This document shows positions 10,520-61,655 of a DNA stretch of 64,000 nt, piece after piece. The notes beneath the pieces were generated by a model. That model was given only the letters and a program-made list of their open reading frames with translations, was not told where the DNA came from and did not search any database. Location of the stretch: assembly GCF_053078305.1 (NCBI RefSeq), contig NZ_CP166879.1; one strand, written 5' to 3'. The position numbers were made by a program, and so were the translations under genes. Numbering within the stretch: the stretch's first letter is position 1; every line of letters starts with the position of its first letter.

Positions 10520-12964
10520 TTACACCTTTTCAACCTGAACAAGGTTTGTATGTGACGGATTCCCCTTAGCGAGAGGAGACGGACGTTGAGTGGTCAGTAC
10601 GTTAATACAACCACCCTTATCGACACGTTTTGCATCCGGGTCATACCAGGCACCTTCACCCAGTGCGACCACACCCGGCATCATTCGTGGCGTCACTTTC
10701 GCCTCAATATGAACCTCACCACGATCGTTAAAGATCCTGACTTTATCGCCGTTGTGGATACCGCGTTTTTGGGCATCAAGCGGGTTGATCCACATTTCCT
10801 GACGGCAAGCCGCTTTCAGCACATCAACGTTGCCGTAAGTTGAGTGAACGCGAGATTTATAGTGGAAACCCGTAAGCTGCAGCGGATACTGTTTGTTCAG
10901 CGGATCCTGATAACTTTCAAAGCCCGGCGTGTAGATCGGCAGTGGATCGATCACATCGCCTTCTGGCAATTCCCAGGTAGCGGCAATGTCAGCCAGCGCC
11001 TGCGAATAAATCTCAATTTTGCCCGATGGCGTAGTCAGTGGGTTTGCCTGCGGATCTTCACGGAAGGCTTTATAAGCAACGTGATGCCCTTGTGGGTCGC
11101 GCTTTTTAAAGATCCCCTGCTTGCGGAACTCTTCAAACGTTGGCAGTTCAGGAATCGCTTCCCGCGACTGGGCATACAGATGCCGCATCCACTCTTCCTG
11201 TGTACGACCTTCAGTAAACTGTTGCTCAACGCCAAGACGTTTTGCCAGTTCGCTGGTCATCTCATAGATGGTCTTACATTCAAAGCGCGGTTTAATCACC
11301 TGATCGTTGAAAATCACGTAAGACATATTCCCGCAGGATGCATCCAGCGCAAAGTCCATCTGTTCGGAAGCGGTGCAGTCAGGCAGCAGGATGTCAGCAT
11401 ATTTCGCCGATGAAGTCATGTGGCAGTCGATAACCACAATCAGCTCGCACTTCTTATCATCCTGGAGGATTTCATGGGTACGGTTGATTTCAGAATGCTG
11501 GTTAATCAGGCAGTTACCGGCATAGTTCCAGATCATTTTGATCGGCACATCCAGCTTATCTTTCCCGCGCACACCATCACGCAGCGCCGTCATTTCCGGG
11601 CCACGTTCAATGGCATCGGTCCACATAAACATCGAAATGCTGGTCTGGATCGGGTTTTCCAAGGTCGGCATACGGACAAACGGTAAGCTGTATGAACCTT
11701 CACGCGCGCCGCTGTTCCCTCCATTAATACCAACGTTACCGGTCAGAATCGCCAGCATCGAGATAGCGCGAGTCGCGATTTCGCCGTTGGCGTGGCGCTG
11801 CGGCCCCCATCCCTGGCTGATAAACGCCGGTTTGGTACTGCCGATTTCACGAGCCAGTTTGATGATTTTGTCTGCCGGAACACCGGTGATTTGCGAGGCC
11901 CATTCCGGTGTTTTAGCCACGCCATCTGGCCCTTCACCCAGAATATAAGCTTTATAGTGGCCATTTTTCGGCGCACTGGCTGGCAGGGTTTTCTCGTCAT
12001 AGCCAACGCAATATTTATCGAGGAATGCCTGATCCACCAGGTTTTCGGTGATCATGACATACGCCAGACCGTTAACCAGTGCGGCATCTGTTCCTGGACG
12101 AATAGGGATCCACTCATCTTCGCGCCCGGCACCGGTGTCGGTATAGCGCGGATCGATGATGATCATGCGGGCATTAGATTTCTGGCGTGCCTGTTCAAGA
12201 TAGTAAGTCACCCCACCGCCACTCATTCGCGTTTCGCCAGGGTTATTACCAAACAGCACTACCAGCTTACTGTTTTCGATATCCGACGGGCTGTTGCCAT
12301 CTGCCCAGCCGCCGTAGGTATAGTTCAGACCTTCCGCAATTTGCGCGGAAGAGTAGTCACCGTAATGGTTCAGATAACCGCCGCAGCAGTTCATCAGCCG
12401 CGCGACCAGGGTATTTCCCGGCGGCCAGGAGCGGGTCATGGTGCCACCCAGCGTACCGGTGCCATAGTTAAGATAGATGGATTCGTTGCCGTACTCTTTG
12501 ATCAGGCGCTGCATATTGGTCGCGATGATGTCGTAGGCTTCTTCCCAGCTAATGCGCTCGAATTTGCCTTCACCGCGCGCCCCGACTCGTTTCATCGGAT
12601 ATTTCAGGCGGTCCGGATTATAGACACGGCGACGCATGGAACGCCCACGCAAACAGGCGCGAACCTGGTGCAGGCCGTCGTAATTGTCATCGCCGGTATT
12701 GTCCGTTTCGACATATTTGATTTCACCGTCCACGACGTGCATACGTAGCGGGCAGCGACTACCACAGTTAACTGTACAGGCGCTCCAGATAACCTTTTCG
12801 TCTGATTTTGTTGGAATGGCGCTATCGACAGCGTGCGCAATCCGACTAAAAGGTAATGTTAATGCGCTGCTGGCCATTGCCAGGCCGCCGATCGCTGTCG
12901 TTTTTACCAAACCACGGCGACTCACCTCAGCAGCCAATACCGCATCAGGGATTTTCGTTTTCAT
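10520..12964 (-). CDS. dmsA: DMSO reductase catalytic molybdopterin subunit (Tat signal)
   Basis: 814 aa; N-terminal twin-arginine signal (SRRGLVKTTAIGGLAMA); molybdopterin oxidoreductase motifs. Confidence 0.93.
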   Translation of the reverse strand: MKTKIPDAVLAAEVSRRGLVKTTAIGGLAMASSALTLPFSRIAHAVDSAIPTKSDEKVIWSACTVNCGSRCPLRMHVVDGEIKYVETDNTGDDNYDGLHQVRACLRGRSMRRRVYNPDRLKYPMKRVGARGEGKFERISWEEAYDIIATNMQRLIKEYGNESIYLNYGTGTLGGTMTRSWPPGNTLVARLMNCCGGYLNHYGDYSSAQIAEGLNYTYGGWADGNSPSDIENSKLVVLFGNNPGETRMSGGGVTYYLEQARQKSNARMIIIDPRYTDTGAGREDEWIPIRPGTDAALVNGLAYVMITENLVDQAFLDKYCVGYDEKTLPASAPKNGHYKAYILGEGPDGVAKTPEWASQITGVPADKIIKLAREIGSTKPAFISQGWGPQRHANGEIATRAISMLAILTGNVGINGGNSGAREGSYSLPFVRMPTLENPIQTSISMFMWTDAIERGPEMTALRDGVRGKDKLDVPIKMIWNYAGNCLINQHSEINRTHEILQDDKKCELIVVIDCHMTSSAKYADILLPDCTASEQMDFALDASCGNMSYVIFNDQVIKPRFECKTIYEMTSELAKRLGVEQQFTEGRTQEEWMRHLYAQSREAIPELPTFEEFRKQGIFKKRDPQGHHVAYKAFREDPQANPLTTPSGKIEIYSQALADIAATWELPEGDVIDPLPIYTPGFESYQDPLNKQYPLQLTGFHYKSRVHSTYGNVDVLKAACRQEMWINPLDAQKRGIHNGDKVRIFNDRGEVHIEAKVTPRMMPGVVALGEGAWYDPDAKRVDKGGCINVLTTQRPSPLAKGNPSHTNLVQVEKV

Positions 12965-13263
12965 AATGGCTCACTCAAGCTTGCTCACGATTGATTCCAG
13001 TAACAAACCGTATTGTGTAATTATTTCTATAGCAGATCGCTATATAGGCTTGTATACATCGAATAATTTGAAAATCAAAGAGATAGGTAGATTTTCACTC
13101 GAAAGTAGTATTACGTGTAAGTGAGGAGTAATTATTGTTCGGTATCAAAGGGAGACAAAAAAAGCGCCCGCAGGAGGTTTAACGCTACTTACTCCCCTTG
13201 ATGATTTGCTTATTTTTCAATGAGTAAATCAAAACAAGGGGAGCAAATAAGCACAAGTTACAA

Positions 13264-14256
13264 CTAATCGATGGACAGTTTATGGACACTTTCAGCCAGC
13301 GGATTAAAGCTGATTGCATCCTGTAAAAAGTCCGGCGAAAAATGCGCATACGTCATCGTTTGTTGAATCGTGGCATGGCCCAGGATTCGTTGTAGCGTAA
13401 CGATATTTCCGCCATTCATCATGAAATGTGTAGCGAATGTATGACGCATGACATGGGTGGCCTGCCCTTTCGGTAAGTCCGGCTTCACCTCCTGAAGGAT
13501 CTCCCGAAATCTGAGGTAATCAGCCTGGTACAACAATCCGGTTCTGCGGGTTTTAATTAACGCAAGTACCGCATCAGAAACGGGAACGGCGCGAGATTTT
13601 CCGTTCTTGGTGTTAAAGAACATCACGCGGTTACCTACAATATGTTCCCCACGTAAACCAGCTGCTTCACCCCACCTTGCCCCCGTGGAAAGACACAGAA
13701 TGGCAACACGCCGCGCATCTCCATCGAGTCGTTCAAGCAGTCGTTCAATCTCCTCATCTGAAAGAAAGGCCATCTCTGTGTTCCTGACTTTCAGCTTACG
13801 TATTCCCCGAACCGGGTTTTCGTTATGGAACACCTCACCCTCAATCAGCGAGCTGAACATTGCAGACAAGGCACACAAATCGCGGTTAATGCTGGAAGGC
13901 ATTAACCCGGCCTGTAATTTGTCGGACCGGTACCCGAGCATAAATTTTCGCGTCATCTGACTGGCACGAGGATCACCCATCTCACGGTTTATCTTTTCCA
14001 GTCTGACCCTGTAGGTATCCCCGTAATCCTGGTTACGACCATCAAGCAACCACCAGGCCTCTATCAGTTCGGATAACCGACGCTGATCTGCTGGCTTAGC
14101 CTGCCATGGCTTATCATGAAAATTCTGCAAAACATACCTTTCAAACTCCTGCGCCTTTGACTTCAGGGTAAAAATCTTACGAATCCGCTTTCCTTCCGTC
14201 CCTTGTGGCCTTACATCAACCTTATAACGTCCGTCTTTGAGTTGCTTAATCGACAT
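13264..14256 (-). CDS. int: Phage integrase, tyrosine recombinase (P2 Int-like)
   Basis: N-terminus MSIKQLKDGRYKVDVRPQGTEGKRIRK closely resembles P2 Int; C-terminal catalytic region HVMRHTFATHFMMNGGNIVTLQRILGH...TMTYAH; track ORF begins at an upstream TTG. Confidence 0.9.
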   Translation of the reverse strand: MSIKQLKDGRYKVDVRPQGTEGKRIRKIFTLKSKAQEFERYVLQNFHDKPWQAKPADQRRLSELIEAWWLLDGRNQDYGDTYRVRLEKINREMGDPRASQMTRKFMLGYRSDKLQAGLMPSSINRDLCALSAMFSSLIEGEVFHNENPVRGIRKLKVRNTEMAFLSDEEIERLLERLDGDARRVAILCLSTGARWGEAAGLRGEHIVGNRVMFFNTKNGKSRAVPVSDAVLALIKTRRTGLLYQADYLRFREILQEVKPDLPKGQATHVMRHTFATHFMMNGGNIVTLQRILGHATIQQTMTYAHFSPDFLQDAISFNPLAESVHKLSID

Positions 14257-14325
14257 GATTAGCCCCTCCAACGGATAAATTAACCAAACACTCCCTGCGG
14301 GATGAAACCCGCTCGATGTGTAACG

Positions 14326-14673
14326 TCAGCCAGCATTGCGGCCTGATCGGGATGATTTTTGGGTAACGTCGATTGAAGCCAGATCGCCCTCCGACTGAGA
14401 AGATCCATCAAGAGAGAGAGCCGGGGCAATTTGACCCCCAGCTTCAAACGTTTCATCAGTTGTTAACCAAAGTGCATATTTTTTAAAACGTAAATTTTTT
14501 GTGATCTTTAATAAGATCTCACTTCCGATTCCATCTTGCCTTCCCGTTTCGTAATACCTCTGCGTATTAACAGGAATCCCTGTAAGCTCAAAGAATTGCT
14601 TCCTTGTAAGCCTCTCACTTTTCCGGATCATCAAGATTTTTTCACCGATACTTATTGACAGTGTCGAATTCAT
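14326..14673 (-). CDS. Immunity repressor (P2 C-like)
   Basis: From MNSTLSISIGEKILMIRKSERLTRKQFFELTGIPVNTQRYYETGRQ...GQIAPAL; matches P2 C repressor pattern (EKIVLMRKSE...YYESGR...SGQIAPAL) by recall; adjacent to int. Confidence 0.75.
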   Translation of the reverse strand: MNSTLSISIGEKILMIRKSERLTRKQFFELTGIPVNTQRYYETGRQDGIGSEILLKITKNLRFKKYALWLTTDETFEAGGQIAPALSLDGSSQSEGDLASIDVTQKSSRSGRNAG

Positions 14674-14774
14674 ACCACTAAAATCCTCGCAAAAGTGTCG
14701 TAATTTCGACATTAAACAAACCAAAACAAACCTTCATAAGGTGCAATAGGCGCACCTGTGCGAGAGGATAACAA
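14674..14774. promoter_or_regulatory. Divergent lysis/lysogeny switch region between C-like repressor and Cox-like gene
   Basis: Tandem 10-bp direct repeat (t/a)aaacaaacc x2 at 14713-14732 plus palindrome ggtgcaataggcgcacc at 14740-14756; P2-type repressors bind direct repeats. Confidence 0.5.
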
Positions 14775-15299
14775 ATGCGGGACTTCATTGCCGATAAAGA
14801 GTTATCTGACACCGATCACACAACTGGAGCGGCGTACATCAACGCCGATACCAGTCAACAAGAAGCAACAGATAACAACGACGAACAAAAGCCACAGCGC
14901 ACATATAAAAAAGGGGCAACCCTGCGGCTGGATGGCCCAATAGCCGGGCTTTGCTCACTTGAAAAAGGGGCCGCCTACATCGGATTAACAAAAACAGCAT
15001 TACGCGCAGCTCTCCAGCGTAACCAGATGCCAGGGCATAAAACCCGCTCAAACCCTGAAGATGAGAATTCGGATGGTGTTTGGTGGTTTAACGTCAGAGA
15101 GTGGGACAAGCTGGCCGACGAACTCCCGGAATGTGAGCCACCAGAATGGCACAACTGGAAAAGCTACTGGACATACGACCGCCAGAAAAGAAAGTTTACC
15201 CCGGCTGATAAGGAAGATTGCCAGACCGTCAATGGAAAACGGGTTTACAAAGGCAGAAAGTCAAAGCTGGAACAGAGCCAGGATGTAAACGAACGGTGA
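14775..15299 (+). CDS. Cox-like excisionase/transcriptional regulator with long N-terminal extension (start uncertain)
   Basis: Segment GAAYIGLTKTALRAALQRNQMPG...GVWWFNVREW resembles P2 Cox HTH region by recall; divergent from repressor; 174-aa ORF is longer than P2 Cox (91 aa). Confidence 0.5.
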   Translation: MRDFIADKELSDTDHTTGAAYINADTSQQEATDNNDEQKPQRTYKKGATLRLDGPIAGLCSLEKGAAYIGLTKTALRAALQRNQMPGHKTRSNPEDENSDGVWWFNVREWDKLADELPECEPPEWHNWKSYWTYDRQKRKFTPADKEDCQTVNGKRVYKGRKSKLEQSQDVNER

Positions 15300-15305
15300 T
15301 GAACG

Positions 15306-15701
15306 ATGAGCGGCAAAAATAAGTCAGAAAAAAACACAACCGTCCTTAAGCAGTTAAGCCTCCTGAAAGAGGAACACAAGGACGCCACGATACTGATGCA
15401 TCTGGAAGGCTCACCGAAAATAACAATCACAACAACCTATAGCGAGTTACACAAAGAGCTTGAAGGATTAATTAACTTTTGTTCAAAGCTAAAAGCGAAT
15501 GAAAACATTGATGACCTGATACTTAAACCAGAAGCAGAGTTCGGGCACTTTTGCGAAAGTAGAGAAAATGGATGCATCGGAATAATGCTATACGCAACCC
15601 GCGGAATAATGATTAATCTGCCCGTTGAGCAGGCTGTGGATATATTCGGAGAAATGGCACTTAATAAAACCACTATTTACAAAAGAAAAATGCCGGAGTA
15701 A
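15306..15701 (+). CDS. Hypothetical protein in AT-rich moron (131 aa)
   Basis: ATG overlapping stop of upstream gene; local GC ~40% versus ~55% in flanking phage genes; no recognisable motif. Confidence 0.45.
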   Translation: MSGKNKSEKNTTVLKQLSLLKEEHKDATILMHLEGSPKITITTTYSELHKELEGLINFCSKLKANENIDDLILKPEAEFGHFCESRENGCIGIMLYATRGIMINLPVEQAVDIFGEMALNKTTIYKRKMPE

Positions 15702-15714
15702 CCCGGCATGGTTA

Positions 15715-15909
15715 TTAGTATGTTGGTCCCTTAGAAAAGTTCCAGGAACTCTTGCGAGGGTATTTATGAAGTACTTTTTCGCGGACATCGTTAGCCAGAT
15801 CTCTGATTTGATCGTGCTTATCATCAGAAGACGGAGGAACTTCGGGGATTTTATCCACGATTTCAATTACTGATTTAAGCATTTTTATTAATTCATCGTC
15901 GTAAGACAT
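15715..15909 (-). CDS. Hypothetical small acidic protein in AT-rich moron (about 64 aa; start uncertain)
   Basis: Convergent with 15306..15701; track ORF 15715..15942; likely start MSYDDELIKMLKSVIEIVDK. Confidence 0.35.
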   Translation of the reverse strand: MSYDDELIKMLKSVIEIVDKIPEVPPSSDDKHDQIRDLANDVREKVLHKYPRKSSWNFSKGPTY

Positions 15910-16016
15910 TGTTATCTCCTTTTTCTGGTTGTGTGGAAACACCAGAATACCACGCGCCGGGCGTGGTTAAACATCCCGGCACTGATTTTCATTTAACTTA
16001 AACGGGGTTTTCCGAT

Positions 16017-16355
16017 ATGACACAGCGACGCAGCTTCCGCACTGGCGCAGAACGCCACGCAGCCCGTTTCTCAACCAGCGCATCACGCAGCAACTCGCAC
16101 TACAGCCTGCAGGAAACGCACGCCACACCTGACGGGCATCCGGTTAAACAAACCGGTAAACACACCTGGCTGATTAATGATGCCGGAATTGTCATTCACC
16201 GGGGCGCACGCAACCCGATTACCGGAAATACCTGTTACTCCCTGACTCGCGGAGATGAGCAGTTCGGGCAGGATTTCACCCTGCACGAAGCATTAAGAAC
16301 GGCAGACCGGTTAATCAGCGGTCGCAGTTTTCAGCACCCGGAACATCGCCGCTGA
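16017..16355 (+). CDS. Hypothetical phage early protein
   Basis: 112-aa ORF in early operon; no recognisable motif. Confidence 0.4.
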   Translation: MTQRRSFRTGAERHAARFSTSASRSNSHYSLQETHATPDGHPVKQTGKHTWLINDAGIVIHRGARNPITGNTCYSLTRGDEQFGQDFTLHEALRTADRLISGRSFQHPEHRR

Positions 16356-16374
16356 TAAATAAAAGGATTCAGCC

Positions 16375-16617
16375 ATGATCGAAGCCTACAAAATACTTAT
16401 TAATAATGCGTTGCAGCGTTATCACTTCGAACTCGCAAACCGGGGGGTAACCCGGGACGAAGGACTTCGTAACTCACTGCGGGGCGCAATTATGGGACTG
16501 TATAACTGCGCACTGGGCAGCGATGACCGCGAAGCACTGGAAGAATTAAAAGTTATTGTGGCCGAACTGTTTGAAGGTGAAATCGTTGAGCCTTATTTCA
16601 CAGAGGTGGCAGCATGA
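16375..16617 (+). CDS. Hypothetical phage early protein
   Basis: 80-aa ORF with RBS-like aaggattcagcc upstream. Confidence 0.4.
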   Translation: MIEAYKILINNALQRYHFELANRGVTRDEGLRNSLRGAIMGLYNCALGSDDREALEELKVIVAELFEGEIVEPYFTEVAA

Positions 16618-16739
16618 GCGTATTTCTTTCATGGGTGATTCTGATTATTTCCGTGCTTATGGCGATTGGCATTATGCGAATTATCGAAGCGCTGAAAAAT
16701 ATCGAATCTTTATTTACTGGCGAAGAACGCCGTAAATAA
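16614..16739 (+). CDS. Small single-TM membrane peptide (41 aa), translationally coupled (ATGA overlap)
   Basis: Not in the ORF track (below length cutoff); MSVFLSWVILIISVLMAIGIMRIIEALKNIESLFTGEERRK read from sequence; start overlaps preceding stop. Confidence 0.35.
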   Translation: MSVFLSWVILIISVLMAIGIMRIIEALKNIESLFTGEERRK

Positions 16740-16818
16740 ATAACCAACCGGACAGAAAACATTAAAACCATCCGCATCTGCGGAGGGCTTCACTCAATCC
16801 AGAAACGGAGAAACAGCT

Positions 16819-17097
16819 ATGAGCACCAATACACCTACAGAAATAAACAAACTATTTACCGACCCGGCGCATATTGAATTGACGCAAAAAACGCTGACTG
16901 AAATAACCAATGTACTGGATGAAAGAATATCAGAAATAGATAAAGACAAGCATTTTGCTACTTACATGGCCCTGCAAATGCAAAGCATGGCAATGGTGAC
17001 AGCAAAACAGACCATCAGTGAACTCTATATGAAAAACCTGCGCCTTGAGCACGAACTGGCAGAACTCCGGGCACAGTCCGGCCAGTTTTCAGCGTGA
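16819..17097 (+). CDS. Hypothetical phage early protein (predicted coiled coil)
   Basis: 92-aa ORF with RBS aacggagaaacagct before ATG. Confidence 0.4.
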   Translation: MSTNTPTEINKLFTDPAHIELTQKTLTEITNVLDERISEIDKDKHFATYMALQMQSMAMVTAKQTISELYMKNLRLEHELAELRAQSGQFSA

Positions 17098-17360
17098 GGG
17101 GCAGGACGATGAACAGCATATTTACCGCCACAAGACGAACCCTGCTGACGCATTTCACCGATGCCGCGGGCCGCGAATTCATGGTGGAAAGTTATTTAAT
17201 CACAACGACCACGCCGTGCCCGTCAGACGCTGATTATCTCTACATCCATCTGGCTGACGGAACACAAATCACCGCGATTGCCAGTACCGTTCGCGAAGTA
17301 ATGACCATCAGAGGGGCATGGAAATCAGAAACACAAGCCCACGGAGAGCTGCGGCCATGA
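17094..17360 (+). CDS. Hypothetical phage early protein
   Basis: 88-aa ORF, start overlaps preceding stop. Confidence 0.4.
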   Translation: MRGRTMNSIFTATRRTLLTHFTDAAGREFMVESYLITTTTPCPSDADYLYIHLADGTQITAIASTVREVMTIRGAWKSETQAHGELRP

Positions 17361-18150: not shown

Positions 18151-18266
18151 GTGATCATCATGCACACACAAAAAAACCGCTTGCCATGCCGCAATCAGTC
18201 AGGTTACATTCCCACTGCACCTCATAAAACGGGTGCCGGGATTACCACCCCGCCGACTACACAAGC

Positions 18267-18290
18267 GCACAACCGCGCCAGCGGTTTTTT
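18267..18290 (+). terminator. Rho-independent terminator inside early region
   Basis: Hairpin accgcgccagcggt followed by TTTTTTT. Confidence 0.55.
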
Positions 18291-18470
18291 TGTGCGTACT
18301 GTATCGCCACGTCTTTTTCGCGTCAGAATTATGGCGGGGCGTACGGGGCCGACTTCGGTCGGGCCGGGGTCTTGTGTAGCCGGTTGTGGTAACCCTGTAC
18401 GTCTCGCCACCCTGAGATTACCGCCTCGGGTTGGTGAGTTTTCACAACTTACTACACAAGGGGCCACACC

Positions 18471-18698
18471 ATGGCAAACCGCAAACAACAGCGCGTCCGC
18501 GCTGAGCGTCTTCACATCCGCACCGAAATCAACCGCAGACTCTGGCGCGCATCACGCGTCGCGCAAATCATGTACATCAACATGCTGCATGAACACGCAC
18601 ACGCGCTGTCAGACCGTTACTGTGCCGCCGTCTTCAGCTACCTGGCGGATGACCTGGCAGAGCTGCAGGACCTTATCAACCAGCAACACCACCACTAA
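18471..18698 (+). CDS. Hypothetical small protein
   Basis: 75 aa; ATG with aagggg RBS; preferred over overlapping low-complexity ORF 18151..18780. Confidence 0.4.
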   Translation: MANRKQQRVRAERLHIRTEINRRLWRASRVAQIMYINMLHEHAHALSDRYCAAVFSYLADDLAELQDLINQQHHH

Positions 18699-18766: not shown

Positions 18767-19189
18767 ATGAAGAACGTTAAGGGACTTTCAGATATTCAGG
18801 ATTTTTTTAACTGGATGTGGGCAGTGGATCCCCGGCTGGCTTCCCGCCTGAACGACTGGCACGACTATTACCGCCGCGCCTGTAAACAGGCCGCCAGACG
18901 CGTCACCACATACGGGGATTTCTCCTTCACCGTTGACGGCAGTTACCGCGTGGACGTGAAAGGCGATGGTGATGGTTTTGGTTTTGGTTTATTTCACATC
19001 AACGGAACCGACAGCACCGCCATCAGCTGGTCGTCGTCAGAGATGACGCTTGTTCTGGAAATGACAAACCACAGCGTGGCCGTGAAAGGTATATACACCG
19101 CAGAAGACTTTATCGGTGAATACCAGCGCCTTCTCGTGCTGTACCGGGCAGCGTTTCAGGCGGCAACTGCCGGGGAGTGCGACGCATGA
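18767..19189 (+). CDS. Hypothetical protein preceding replication gene
   Basis: 140-aa ORF; stop overlaps start of the replication gene. Confidence 0.4.
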   Translation: MKNVKGLSDIQDFFNWMWAVDPRLASRLNDWHDYYRRACKQAARRVTTYGDFSFTVDGSYRVDVKGDGDGFGFGLFHINGTDSTAISWSSSEMTLVLEMTNHSVAVKGIYTAEDFIGEYQRLLVLYRAAFQAATAGECDA

Positions 19190-21705
19190 GCGACCATAAC
19201 GCACAACTGGCGTACCCGTGGAACGCCCCGCTGCCGGTTATCGATCCTGAAACGTTCGGCAGAGCGCAACCAACCGCATTACGCCAGGCCATTCAGAGCT
19301 ACATCAACGAAGACATTCGCACTGACGCCAGACTGGATGAAGAAACCGTCGCCTTCCTGACAACCACAGACGAAGGGAAGCGAATTAATTCGCATCTTCA
19401 CCACGACGAAGAGCGTCGGATCAGACTGGAAAAACTGACGCGACACAAACGCGAAAATCCACCCACGCTGGTATCTGAAGCCATGGCAGAGCTGCGCGCC
19501 CTGCCGCCGTTTCTTGCCGGTCCGCTCATCCGTGACCTGGCCCGCCTGAGCCGCAAACAGGAGAGCGCACGCCGGGAAGGGCTTAAGAATAACAGCGCAT
19601 ATGCGGCGGATAACTTCGTTCGTCACGGCCTGCGTGCCCGCCTGAAACGTATCGCCCGTGTGAATGAACGCTTTGCCACCCCGGCCTTTAAGGCCACCGC
19701 CGCCCGCGAACGGCTGGATGAACTGCTTATGCTGCCGCAGCTGAGCCGTGACGAAATCCAGCGCCTTGCCACCCTGACCGCCACCGCGTTTTCCGCCGCA
19801 CTGGAGCGCGCATGTGATGAGGTCATCGAAAAGACCGGCAGGGGTGACGATGACCTGTTCACCTGGTTACTGACCTACCAGCCACTGGCACGCATGGCGT
19901 TAAAACTGGGTATCACACCACCCTGCTGGCCGTCGCTGGAAATCAGACCCGACCGCCGCACCGCCCCCGACCCGGAACAGGTGCCGGGTGCGGTCATGCG
20001 CCTTTCCTGTGCGACATGGTGGAACAGTCAGTTAAGACACCTCCGGGACATCTGGCGTGAAGAGCTGTTACGCGCCGCAGGTCTGGTGTCACGTAAGACA
20101 TCGGTATATATCAGCCATGAAGCGTTACTGGACTGGCGCGAAAAACGCCAGCGCACCCGCGATTTTCTGAAGGCCTGGGACATCGAGAACGAAGAGGGAG
20201 AACGGTTCAGCCTTGAGGATATCTACTGGGCAGGTCTCTCTAATCCGCGTAACCGCCGTAACGAGATGATGGCCTGCGTCCGGGGAATGGAGCAGGTCGC
20301 CGAAGCACGCGGCGACCTGGCGTTTTTCGTCACCGTCACAGCCCCTTCCCGTTTTCACAGCGTGAACGATGACGGCAGCCTGAACCCGAAATACTGCGGA
20401 GCAACGGTACGTGATGCCAGTGATTATCTGGTTTACCGCTTTTTCGCCGCCGTCCGCAGGGCCATCAACAAGGCCGGGCTGGGCTGGTACGGCGTGCGCA
20501 CAGTGGAGCCCCACCACGACGGTACACCGCACTGGCACATGCTGGTATTCACCAGCCCGGAAAACGAAGCCCGTATCACTGAAATCATGCGCAACGCCGC
20601 CATCAGGGAGGACCGCGCAGAGCTGGGTGATGATATCTCCCCGCGTTTTAAATGCGAAAAAATCGACCCGGCAAAAGGCACACCGGCGAGCTATATCGCG
20701 ACCTATATCGGTAAGAACCTGGACGCCAGCGCCTTCATGGGGAATGACCCGAAAACCGGCAAACCTTACGTCGATAAGGAATCAGGCAAAACCATGGCCG
20801 AAACCGTGGAGAACGCCATCGGCTGGGCGGCCCTTCACCGCATCCGCCAGTTCCAGTTCTTCGGTATCCCTCCCCGCCAGGTATGGCGCGAACTCCGCCG
20901 CCTTGCCGGGCAGATGGCCCGTAACCCGGCTGCCCCGCAGCGTCTGGACCATGACGACATTGACGCCATACTGGCCGCCGCCGACGTGGGATGTTTTGCC
21001 ACCTATATCACCCGCCAGGGTGGTGTGCTCATTCCCCGCAACACGTACCTGGTCCGCACCGCATACGAAACTGCCGAAGAGGCCAACGACTACGGCGAAT
21101 TCCCGCAACGCATTTACGGCGTCCGCGCCCCGTCACTCGGGGAGCGCTACACCATATGCACCCACCCGGACACCTGGAAACTGGTCAGACGTAAGCCGGA
21201 AAACGAAGACCGCACGGACGAGGGTTTTGACGTTGAGTGCGGCTTTGCCGCACCTTGGACTCGTGGCAATAACTGTCCCCCTGACCAGAATCTGACCATA
21301 AACGACCCGCCAGAAAGGCAGCCGGACGGACGCAGGGAGCAGCGACTTACCCTGCCGGAAGGTGATTTGGGTGAATGGTTAAGGTCACTGACCCCCACAG
21401 AGCGAAAACAACTCACCAGGCAGCTGAAAAACCCGCCACCTGACACGGAAACCGTGAAAAACGGCGGCATCAGTGCGCCCGCTGGCGGCGTTCGCGTGAG
21501 TGTCGCACTGACCGCTGAGCCACACATCACCGCACAAATCACCCGTGAGCTTGATGCGCTGGGCGTGCAGCTGCATGAAAGCGCCGTCGTTTCCGTCCGG
21601 CACGGTGCCCGCGTGCGCCTGGCTGACGGGCGCACCGCGTACTGGAATGACAGCACCCGCCGCATTGATATCACCCCCGCACCGAATACGGAGGCGCCAC
21701 AATGA
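19177..21705 (+). CDS. Replication initiation endonuclease (P2 gpA-like, HUH rolling-circle Rep)
   Basis: 842 aa; HUH-type motif EPHHDGTPHWHMLVF; located where P2 A lies relative to int-C-cox. Confidence 0.8.
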   Translation: MRRMSDHNAQLAYPWNAPLPVIDPETFGRAQPTALRQAIQSYINEDIRTDARLDEETVAFLTTTDEGKRINSHLHHDEERRIRLEKLTRHKRENPPTLVSEAMAELRALPPFLAGPLIRDLARLSRKQESARREGLKNNSAYAADNFVRHGLRARLKRIARVNERFATPAFKATAARERLDELLMLPQLSRDEIQRLATLTATAFSAALERACDEVIEKTGRGDDDLFTWLLTYQPLARMALKLGITPPCWPSLEIRPDRRTAPDPEQVPGAVMRLSCATWWNSQLRHLRDIWREELLRAAGLVSRKTSVYISHEALLDWREKRQRTRDFLKAWDIENEEGERFSLEDIYWAGLSNPRNRRNEMMACVRGMEQVAEARGDLAFFVTVTAPSRFHSVNDDGSLNPKYCGATVRDASDYLVYRFFAAVRRAINKAGLGWYGVRTVEPHHDGTPHWHMLVFTSPENEARITEIMRNAAIREDRAELGDDISPRFKCEKIDPAKGTPASYIATYIGKNLDASAFMGNDPKTGKPYVDKESGKTMAETVENAIGWAALHRIRQFQFFGIPPRQVWRELRRLAGQMARNPAAPQRLDHDDIDAILAAADVGCFATYITRQGGVLIPRNTYLVRTAYETAEEANDYGEFPQRIYGVRAPSLGERYTICTHPDTWKLVRRKPENEDRTDEGFDVECGFAAPWTRGNNCPPDQNLTINDPPERQPDGRREQRLTLPEGDLGEWLRSLTPTERKQLTRQLKNPPPDTETVKNGGISAPAGGVRVSVALTAEPHITAQITRELDALGVQLHESAVVSVRHGARVRLADGRTAYWNDSTRRIDITPAPNTEAPQ

Positions 21706-61224: not shown

Positions 61225-61312
61225 GGTGAGGTGTCCGAGTGGCTGAAGGAGCACGCCTGGAAAGTGTGTATACGGCAACGTATCGGGGGTTCGAATCCCC
61301 CCCTCACCGCCA
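61225..61312 (+). tRNA. serW: tRNA-Ser (anticodon GGA), long-variable-arm class II tRNA
   Basis: GGTGAGGTGTCCGAGTGGCTGAAGGAGCACGCCTGGAAAGTGTG...GGTTCGAATCCCCCCCTCACCGCCA; acceptor stem complementarity, T-loop GGTTCGAATCC, CCA end. Confidence 0.93.
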
Positions 61313-61351: not shown

Positions 61352-61655
61352 TTCGCATTTTATCTGTCTGTACGGCAGTGAACATGGTGGGCGGGTGGAG
61401 TATGTTACCTGTGAATTTCTAAGCTGCCTGTACGGCAGTGAACACAAATACTACACGTTTAGCCCGTTGTTAATAAAGCAAAACCATCTCATTTTCCTGC
61501 TACCACCCTTTTTTTATCCTTACCTTACCGCAGCACTAATTATCAACAACTTACCATCATCATCAAAAAAAGGGTCTGAACCTCCTCCCCCATAAATAAA
61601 AAGTCCGTAACCTCTTTCGAGATTACGGACTTCACCAACCTACTTAACAATCAGA

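Follow-up and report, generated by a model that had tools for sequence, protein, structure and literature searches.

A recurring convergent gene pair in a variable early-region interval of P2-like prophages

We analyzed a stretch of 64,000 nucleotides from contig NZ_CP166879.1 of assembly GCF_053078305.1 (the window, to whose positions all unprefixed coordinates refer), which is part of an Escherichia coli chromosome carrying a P2-like prophage inserted beside dmsA (Table 1). At the left end of this prophage, the gene for a helix-turn-helix (HTH) repressor is divergent from a Cox-family gene, annotated in RefSeq as 'Cox family DNA-binding protein', and the placement of a candidate early promoter Pe between these two genes corresponds to the Pe/Pc layout of P2. 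From its sequence and position, this promoter would transcribe cox, the adjoining ORF131 and the downstream early genes, in which the DUF4761- and DUF4754-family genes are followed by more small early genes and then by the replication endonuclease gpA.

Table 1. Positions of the genes and signals at the prophage left end in the window.
Feature	Position	Strand	Basis or remark
dmsA	10520-12964	-	adjoins the prophage insertion
Integrase gene	13264-14271	-	prophage left end
HTH repressor ORF	14326-14724	-	divergent from cox
Candidate early promoter Pe	14655-14684	+	consensus scan; TTGACA-18-TAAAAT, 11/12 matches
Cox-family gene, 174 aa	14775-15299	+	phrog_23196, E 3e-95; left flank of the variable interval
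ORF131	15306-15701	+	orphan family A; predicted second gene of the Pe early operon
Terminator-like hairpin for the leftward ORF64 transcript	15680-15709	-	terminator scan; hairpin itself 15690-15709
ORF64	15715-15909	-	orphan family B; convergent with ORF131
Shine-Dalgarno sequence AGGAGA of ORF64	15915-15920	-	5 nt upstream of the ATG; read from the sequence
Conserved leader/promoter-like element upstream of ORF64	15944-15982	-	comparison of variants
DUF4761-family gene	16017-16355	+	phrog_2492, E 2e-36, and RefSeq annotation; right flank of the variable interval
DUF4754 gene	16375-16617	+	early region
Replication endonuclease gpA	19177-21705		starts ~3.5 kb downstream of the AT-rich segment

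Several RNA-related elements are found elsewhere in the window. A full-length match (122 bits) to the enterobacterial sRNA STnc130 lies at 13055-13189, between dmsA and the integrase gene, i.e., at the chromosome/prophage junction. Inside the P2-like early operon, Rfam gathering-level matches to isrK (18217-18291, 63.6 bits) and to the C4 antisense RNA (18327-18414, 79.6 bits) stand directly upstream of a 75-aa 'derepression protein' ORF (18471-18698), and together this stretch looks like an antisense-controlled antirepressor cassette of the P1/P7 c4-ant type in a P2-like phage. Far to the right there is a tRNA-Ser (GGA) gene (61225-61312) and, ~100 bp past it on the opposite strand, a single 28-nt match to the CRISPR-DR4 repeat model (61416-61443).

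The segment between positions 15300 and 15950 is AT-rich and holds two genuine uncharacterized genes. Its GC content is 0.401 (40.1%), compared with 0.50 in cox and 0.57 in the DUF4761 gene, and it is the lowest-GC stretch of 651 bp in the prophage (13.2-50 kb; mean 0.558, sd 0.049; about -3.2 sd), which bears out a preliminary description of ~650 bp at ~40% GC, below the surroundings. ORF131 (GC 0.40) begins with an ATG 6 nt past the cox stop codon (15297-15299) and so abuts the Cox-like gene, as had also been reported, and its stop codon is separated by 13 nt from that of the convergent ORF64 (GC 0.385). The position and orientation given earlier for a convergent ~64-aa acidic ORF are likewise correct; its acidity is not, the protein being barely acidic overall (pI 6.05, net charge -1.3, 12 D+E vs 11 K+R) and its acidic character being confined to the N-terminal half.

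ORF131 has neither promoter nor terminator signals of its own and abuts cox, an arrangement from which it is predicted to belong to the Pe early operon. ORF64 is preceded by a Shine-Dalgarno sequence and followed by a terminator-like hairpin that spans the last codons and the stop of ORF131 (stem ATGCCGG/CCGGCAT, then TTTTCTTTTG; MFE -11.9 kcal/mol, z -2.6), with the T-run on the - strand only. A GC-rich hairpin follows the stop codon of the ORF64-family gene in 10/10 variants of the pair described below, even though the hairpin sequences are unrelated; the T-rich tails favour the strand of this gene, the strongest being that of the window with 8 T in 10 nt.

Comparison of the variants also revealed a conserved leader element upstream of ORF64 (fold z about -2.4). 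It combines TGGTATTCT at 15952-15944, which resembles an extended -10 when read on the - strand, with an inverted repeat CCACGC-N5-GCGTGG (15950-15966) and an alternative stem GCCGGG...CCCGGC (15956-15980); the repeat differs from the CCATGC/GCATGG of the relatives by one compensatory double change (CCAYGC/GCRTGG). The element precedes every leftward cargo gene, whether or not this is related to ORF64, and is found in none of the rightward-only variants. The TGnTA..T motif is present in 10/10 pairs, where it stands at -68 to -81 relative to the start codon (at -43 for the window type), with the qualification that it was defined post hoc, is expected by chance in 13% of shuffled 150-nt regions and is weak by consensus; a standard consensus scan of the - strand returned no -35/-10 promoter. 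We propose that the element may act as the promoter of the leftward genes; a leftward terminator is an equally good reading of the inverted repeat, which has a T-rich tail. In most variants, the leader is ~65-75 nt long and has a further hairpin lying between the TGnTAT motif and the start codon of the leftward gene (L015:4129-4272, L032, L033, L007, L041, L043, L047). The window type has lost this stretch, and its leader is only ~30 nt. An Rfam scan of 14200-17200 at E<=1 yielded no RNA family.

Searches for known relatives of the two proteins were uniformly empty. Against PHROGs, PADLOC, NCBIfam and Pfam, there was nothing beyond a meaningless 12.9-bit match to TupC, and neither protein matched the PADLOC-DB 2.0 defense models at E<=1. 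When the PDB was searched with profiles of the two families, no match had an E value below 0.29; 50,697 phage records yielded no tblastn match to either protein, and a word-indexed homolog search recovered near-identical E. coli proteins only. The functions suggested in the preliminary description (superinfection exclusion, toxin-antitoxin or anti-defense) thus found no backing in the PADLOC, PHROGs, NCBIfam, Pfam, PDB or AFDB searches. Its statement that neither ORF resembles a known P2 early gene holds, since the HMMs of both families (hmmsearch --max; set of 246 segments) have no match in the six-frame translated int-to-A regions of P2 and 186 (AF063097 24500-31500 and U32222 21500-28500; best E 0.43, best score ~4 bits). 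The identification of ORF131 or ORF64 with any of the P2/186 early genes (orf78, B, orf80-83; cII, fil, dhr, orf79-84) was rejected for lack of homology. A literature search with the RefSeq protein accessions and with DUF4761/DUF4754 found no papers.

ORF131 belongs to a family (A) of proteins of 131-225 aa that share a common core of ~110 aa and are represented in at least 10 variants. The first diverged homolog was a 202-aa protein of E. albertii with 33% identity to ORF131, encoded in the sole locus obtained from a scan of genome contigs with a single Cox protein as the query. The family is very small, as 1.84 billion representative proteins searched exhaustively by HMM gave only eight clusters, one of which is likely spurious (484 aa). 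Its distant members (P0023, P0024 and P0025) come from P2-like prophages, where they lie downstream of a different type of cox or of another switch region, and each is followed by a convergent gene, which is of 60-62 aa next to P0023 and P0024. The gene opposite P0025 (225 aa) at locus L043 is of 103 aa and on the - strand; a 62-aa member of the ORF64 family is carried there by a second A paralog (147 aa). The relatives of ORF131 have dN/dS values of 0.13-0.32, indicating purifying selection. An AF2 model built from an 8-sequence alignment predicts, with moderate confidence (pLDDT 71, pTM 0.69), an alpha/beta protein with a long N-terminal helix and two beta-beta-alpha units, for which Foldseek against AFDB50 matched uncharacterized family members only. 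The A alignment shows no invariant polar residues of the catalytic type, and neither an HTH nor any other Pfam domain was found in ORF131, in agreement with a predicted fold that lacks an HTH.

ORF64 is a member of a second family (B) of 59-64 aa proteins, whose matches come only from Escherichia, E. albertii and Yersinia and are all annotated as hypothetical. They are predicted to form two helices (residues 3-20 and 30-49 of ORF64 in the fusion model discussed below) with a Pro-rich loop between them, an invariant K-Y-P and a short disordered tail; conserved residues of the catalytic type are absent from this family too. The relatives of ORF64 are under purifying selection (dN/dS 0.13-0.51). 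Several genomes have truncated or frameshifted B genes of 53, 36, 90 and 106 aa (L053:3001-3162; P0005, P0015, P0019), and at locus L053, the truncated B adjoins an intact A of 140 aa. A want of conservation, which the preliminary description had named as grounds for discarding the ORFs, is excluded for both by diverged homologs of kept length and dN/dS values well below 1.

We compared the interval between cox and the DUF4761 gene across 41 syntenic loci drawn from the window, from E. coli genomes, from E. albertii and from 33 IMG/VR contigs, over which cox is 70-100% identical and the DUF4761-family gene is always present (41/41). The interval ranges from 289 to 1388 bp and is AT-rich in all 41 loci (GC 0.39-0.46). 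Its contents fall into at least five unrelated types: (i) a convergent pair in which a - gene comes after a + gene of 131-202 aa; (ii) a 68-aa membrane protein encoded on the + strand (phrog_14475); (iii) a 64-aa protein on the + strand; (iv) a 151-aa protein on the - strand (phrog_28512), accompanied by a small + ORF; and (v) other combinations (e.g., L036). Searched against PADLOC and PHROGs, the alternative cargo gave only PHROGs of unknown function and noise-level PADLOC matches. Of 5426 complete E. coli genomes, only 10 have the exact DNA of the window's segment, and three of these have the ORF131 part alone, with ORF64 swapped for a +172-aa and a -107-aa ORF. The early region of P88-type (P2-like) prophages thus has, between cox and the DUF4761 gene, an accessory interval that is genuinely prone to swapping. 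The comparison of related prophages, which the preliminary description had recommended, disposes of the possibility that the segment is part of the conserved core.

The marks by which morons (sensu Hendrix/Juhala) are usually recognized are distributed unevenly over the segment. Presence or absence at the same site among close phages is evident from the above counts (10/5426 genomes; at least five alternative contents over 41 loci). Deviant base composition is also evident (0.401 against the prophage mean of 0.558), though it is true of every interval variant, so that low GC is no peculiarity of this cargo, as had been supposed. A downstream terminator of its own is present for ORF64 alone, ORF131 having none. 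The earlier picture of a foreign two-gene moron can thus be retained only in part: the segment is variable, compositionally deviant and not core, but it is not one foreign cassette dropped in; ORF64 has moron-like autonomous signals, but ORF131 appears to be just the second gene of the Pe operon.

The position of the interval distinguishes it from the described accessory sites. One P2 accessory hotspot is gpA-gpQ, the old/tin locus (PMC9122126), and the two classical moron positions of P2 include that of Z/fun between the tail genes G and FI (PMC3573123); 8% of P2 defense systems are placed somewhere between integrase and primase (bioRxiv 10.64898/2026.02.27.708500). The segment, lying between cox and the DUF4761 gene, is outside both described hotspots (gpA-gpQ and G-FI), and the variable slot after cox is a previously undescribed one. 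The morons known from P2-like phages (old and tin at the A-Q site, Z/fun at the G-FI site) are likewise AT-rich and of variable presence, and ORF64 resembles them in opposing the lytic operon and in having its own terminator, together with a candidate promoter; P2 tin, like ORF64, is on the strand opposite to the early genes. Unlike these morons, ORF64 is located inside the early operon right after cox and is tied to a rightward early partner, and neither ORF64 nor ORF131 is homologous to any known moron product. The early operons of the reference phages P2 and 186 lack leftward genes altogether.

The same hotspot can also hold another type of convergent pair (L002:6423-7242, L041:5766-6804 and L043:5001-5937), made up of a + gene of 172-259 aa and, opposite it, a - gene of 103-107 aa. 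Homology links the - proteins to one another (L002 vs L041, 27% over 70 aa; L041 vs L043, 58%), and in L043, the + protein joins an A-family core to the domain that makes up the C-terminal ~95 aa of the 259-aa protein of L041.

The A-B pair itself recurs widely. A prophage of the UTI89/P88 type has, at the same site, a +140-aa and a convergent -63-aa gene that align with ORF131 and ORF64; this allele is present in 271 of the 5426 genomes (all at >=99% identity) and the L015-type allele in two. Ten sequence-distinct A-B pairs were assembled from prophages of Escherichia and Yersinia, plus three whose host is unchecked; in every pair the genes converge, and their stop codons lie -4 to +13 nt from each other. 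Pairs also occur beside a different Cox (PF10743, 103-135 aa) and, at one locus, without a recorded Cox domain. On these comparisons, ORF131 and ORF64 are rare alleles of a recurring convergent pair at the post-cox position in many P2-like prophages. Over the 10 pairs, pairwise identity ranges from 14 to 88% for A and from 22 to 97% for B, and between types, it is only 14-36% for A and 22-46% for B; the cox and DUF4761 genes of the other variant types are 70-80% and 60-86% identical to the window copies. Such a rate of divergence of A and B would fit genes of the conflict type or genes exchanged from a pool. The identities of A and B covary (Spearman 0.41, Pearson 0.91).

The association of the two families is asymmetric. 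Each B homolog for which the context was fetched adjoins an A, and B without A was never met; A is also paired with unrelated leftward genes (L002, L007 and L033/L037), as at locus L002, where an A 97% identical to ORF131 remains and ORF64 is replaced. Between the window and locus L044, ORF131 has diverged (dS 0.38, 88% amino acid identity) and ORF64 is nearly identical (dS 0.03), a difference that places a recombination breakpoint at the 3'-3' junction and terminator hairpin (15701-15715 vs L044:4402-4416). At L002, the conserved leader reaches the start codon of a different gene, and this join, taken with the dS difference between the window and L044, shows cassette exchange at both ends of the leftward gene. 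An AlphaFold model of the fusion ORF131-(G4S)6-ORF64 from 10 paired sequences (pLDDT 59, pTM 0.47, against 71 and 0.69 for A by itself; no contact map) is not convincing as a co-fold, and as a prediction, it speaks neither for nor against a complex.

We consider it firmly supported that an early-operon gene A and a separately signaled leftward gene B recur together in the accessory interval after cox. The likely role of the pair is that of an accessory phage-conflict module, for which we infer the following mechanism. As our best explanation, to which we assign a probability of roughly 0.4, we posit that the window has a rare allele of a tail-to-tail pair, in which A is made early and B, made in the lysogen, acts on or with A. 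ORF131 would be expressed early in lytic growth from the Pe operon, and ORF64 would constitute a separate leftward transcription unit with its own ribosome-binding site, upstream element and a terminator within ORF131. Given these separate leftward signals, ORF64 is probably made mainly when Pe is silent, i.e., in the lysogen; its transcription would be met head-on by that of the rightward early operon, and the early transcript would be antisense to its mRNA. An action of B on or with A is suggested by the presence of B only beside A, the parallel divergence of the two and the lack of catalytic-type residues in either. B might neutralize A arising from leaky expression; it might instead neutralize the A of a relative that superinfects, in which case the accessory function would be akin to exclusion or immunity; or it might time the action of A. 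The presence of A without B in L002 and of a truncated B with an intact A in L053 counts against this explanation. An allele-specific early-protein/inhibitor system, in which a constitutive B of the lysogen with its KYP motif would bind the cognate A of an incoming relative and inactivate it, or keep the lysogen's own A in check up to induction, is unlikely.

The main rival, which we hold to be somewhat doubtful, is that A and B are functionally independent neighbors whose co-occurrence reflects linkage alone, for the terminator of B inside A ties the two physically and could explain why they are found together. ORF131 would then be a non-essential early protein directed at the host or its defenses, comparable in position and dispensability to Fil and Dhr of 186, and the leftward slot would be a generic slot for lysogenic conversion (moron) genes with a conserved promoter, of which ORF64 is the commonest cargo. 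The same upstream element does stand before unrelated leftward genes of 78, 107 and ~160-183 aa, as well as before the leftward genes of L003, a variant without A; the A of L002 keeps 97% identity while its B has been swapped; a recombination junction separates A and B; and the co-fold is unconvincing. In 186, too, the non-essential host-directed genes fil and dhr are small, dispensable genes of the early operon just past the switch, at a position comparable to that of ORF131, though they have no sequence similarity to the pair and no convergent partner gene. Independence is harder to reconcile with the finding that B is never without A in 10 diverged versions and with at least two kinds of upstream Cox genes: the junction recombines readily, and pure linkage should break equally often for B. 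The covariation of A and B identities also speaks against it. Rather improbable is a regulatory device for the lysis-lysogeny decision like cII/OOP of lambda or cII/pE of 186, in which the gene following cro/cox/apl sets the decision and, through antisense pairing and transcriptional interference, a leftward transcript damps either that gene or the early genes further downstream. ORF131 indeed occupies the cII position as the first gene after one of the cro/cox/apl type, and the convergent transcript would end in its 3' end and be wholly antisense to the early polycistronic RNA, much as OOP of lambda is antisense to the 3' end of cII (PMC7067206); moreover, the candidate leftward promoter lacks a -35 and has an inverted repeat where a regulator would bind. 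Yet, when ORF131 is considered as a CII-type activator, its position just after cox agrees and the DNA-binding HTH is missing, with no other recognizable DNA-binding signature and no informative structural neighbor, and the switch components of lambda and 186 have no sequence similarity to A or B. Since many related prophages lack A and have the 68-aa membrane protein or the 64-aa protein instead, A is not a core switch component and, unlike the cII genes, the module is dispensable. The upstream element is present in L003 without A, the terminator would halt leftward transcripts short of cox, C and int, and the leftward transcript, unlike those of lambda and 186, encodes a conserved protein under purifying selection and is thus more than an antisense RNA.

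We regard as very improbable that the pair is a toxin-antitoxin or abortive-infection system defending the host against other phages. It has the look of one in so far as a small helical protein and a larger partner, diverging in parallel as in type II toxin-antitoxin systems, are found in an AT-rich variable prophage locus, and it falls in the stretch between integrase and primase to which 8% of P2 defense systems map (bioRxiv 10.64898/2026.02.27.708500). However, the genes are convergent and on different promoters rather than in a co-transcribed, autoregulated operon; neither matches a toxin or antitoxin family or has a recognizable fold of that kind, and we reject a classical toxin-antitoxin operon on these grounds. 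A known defense system is similarly rejected, with no PADLOC match for either protein or for the alternative cargo. The larger gene would moreover be on the lytic early promoter and hence repressed in the lysogen, where a defense must be ready, and truncated B coexists with intact A. That one or both ORFs are chance frames in an AT-rich spacer is effectively refuted: neither has an annotated relative and one RefSeq genome (H4) annotates a single gene under the segment, but against this stand homologs with identities down to 14-25% that keep length, position and orientation, the low dN/dS, the strong Shine-Dalgarno sequence of ORF64 and the consistent AF2 fold predicted for the A family.

At present, this account is an anatomical description of uncharacterized genes, in which nothing as yet points to an unusual mechanism. 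P2-like elements rank among the most frequent prophages of E. coli, and their described accessory hotspots (old/tin and Z/fun) have already been the source of many defense systems. Our analysis marks a further variable slot in these prophages, inside the early operon right after cox, with interchangeable, uncharacterized small genes and a conserved leftward control region. The UTI89-type pair is present in ~5% of complete E. coli genomes, where a role in phage exclusion, prophage stability or host physiology would matter. The pair is also compact (two genes in ~700 bp), and natural swap variants such as L002 offer ready-made controls. In the unlikely event that B acts in an allele-specific manner on A, the two would represent a second, protein-level layer of immunity among P2-like phages, the specificity of which would diversify by co-evolution of A and B and by cassette swapping at the 3'-3' junction.
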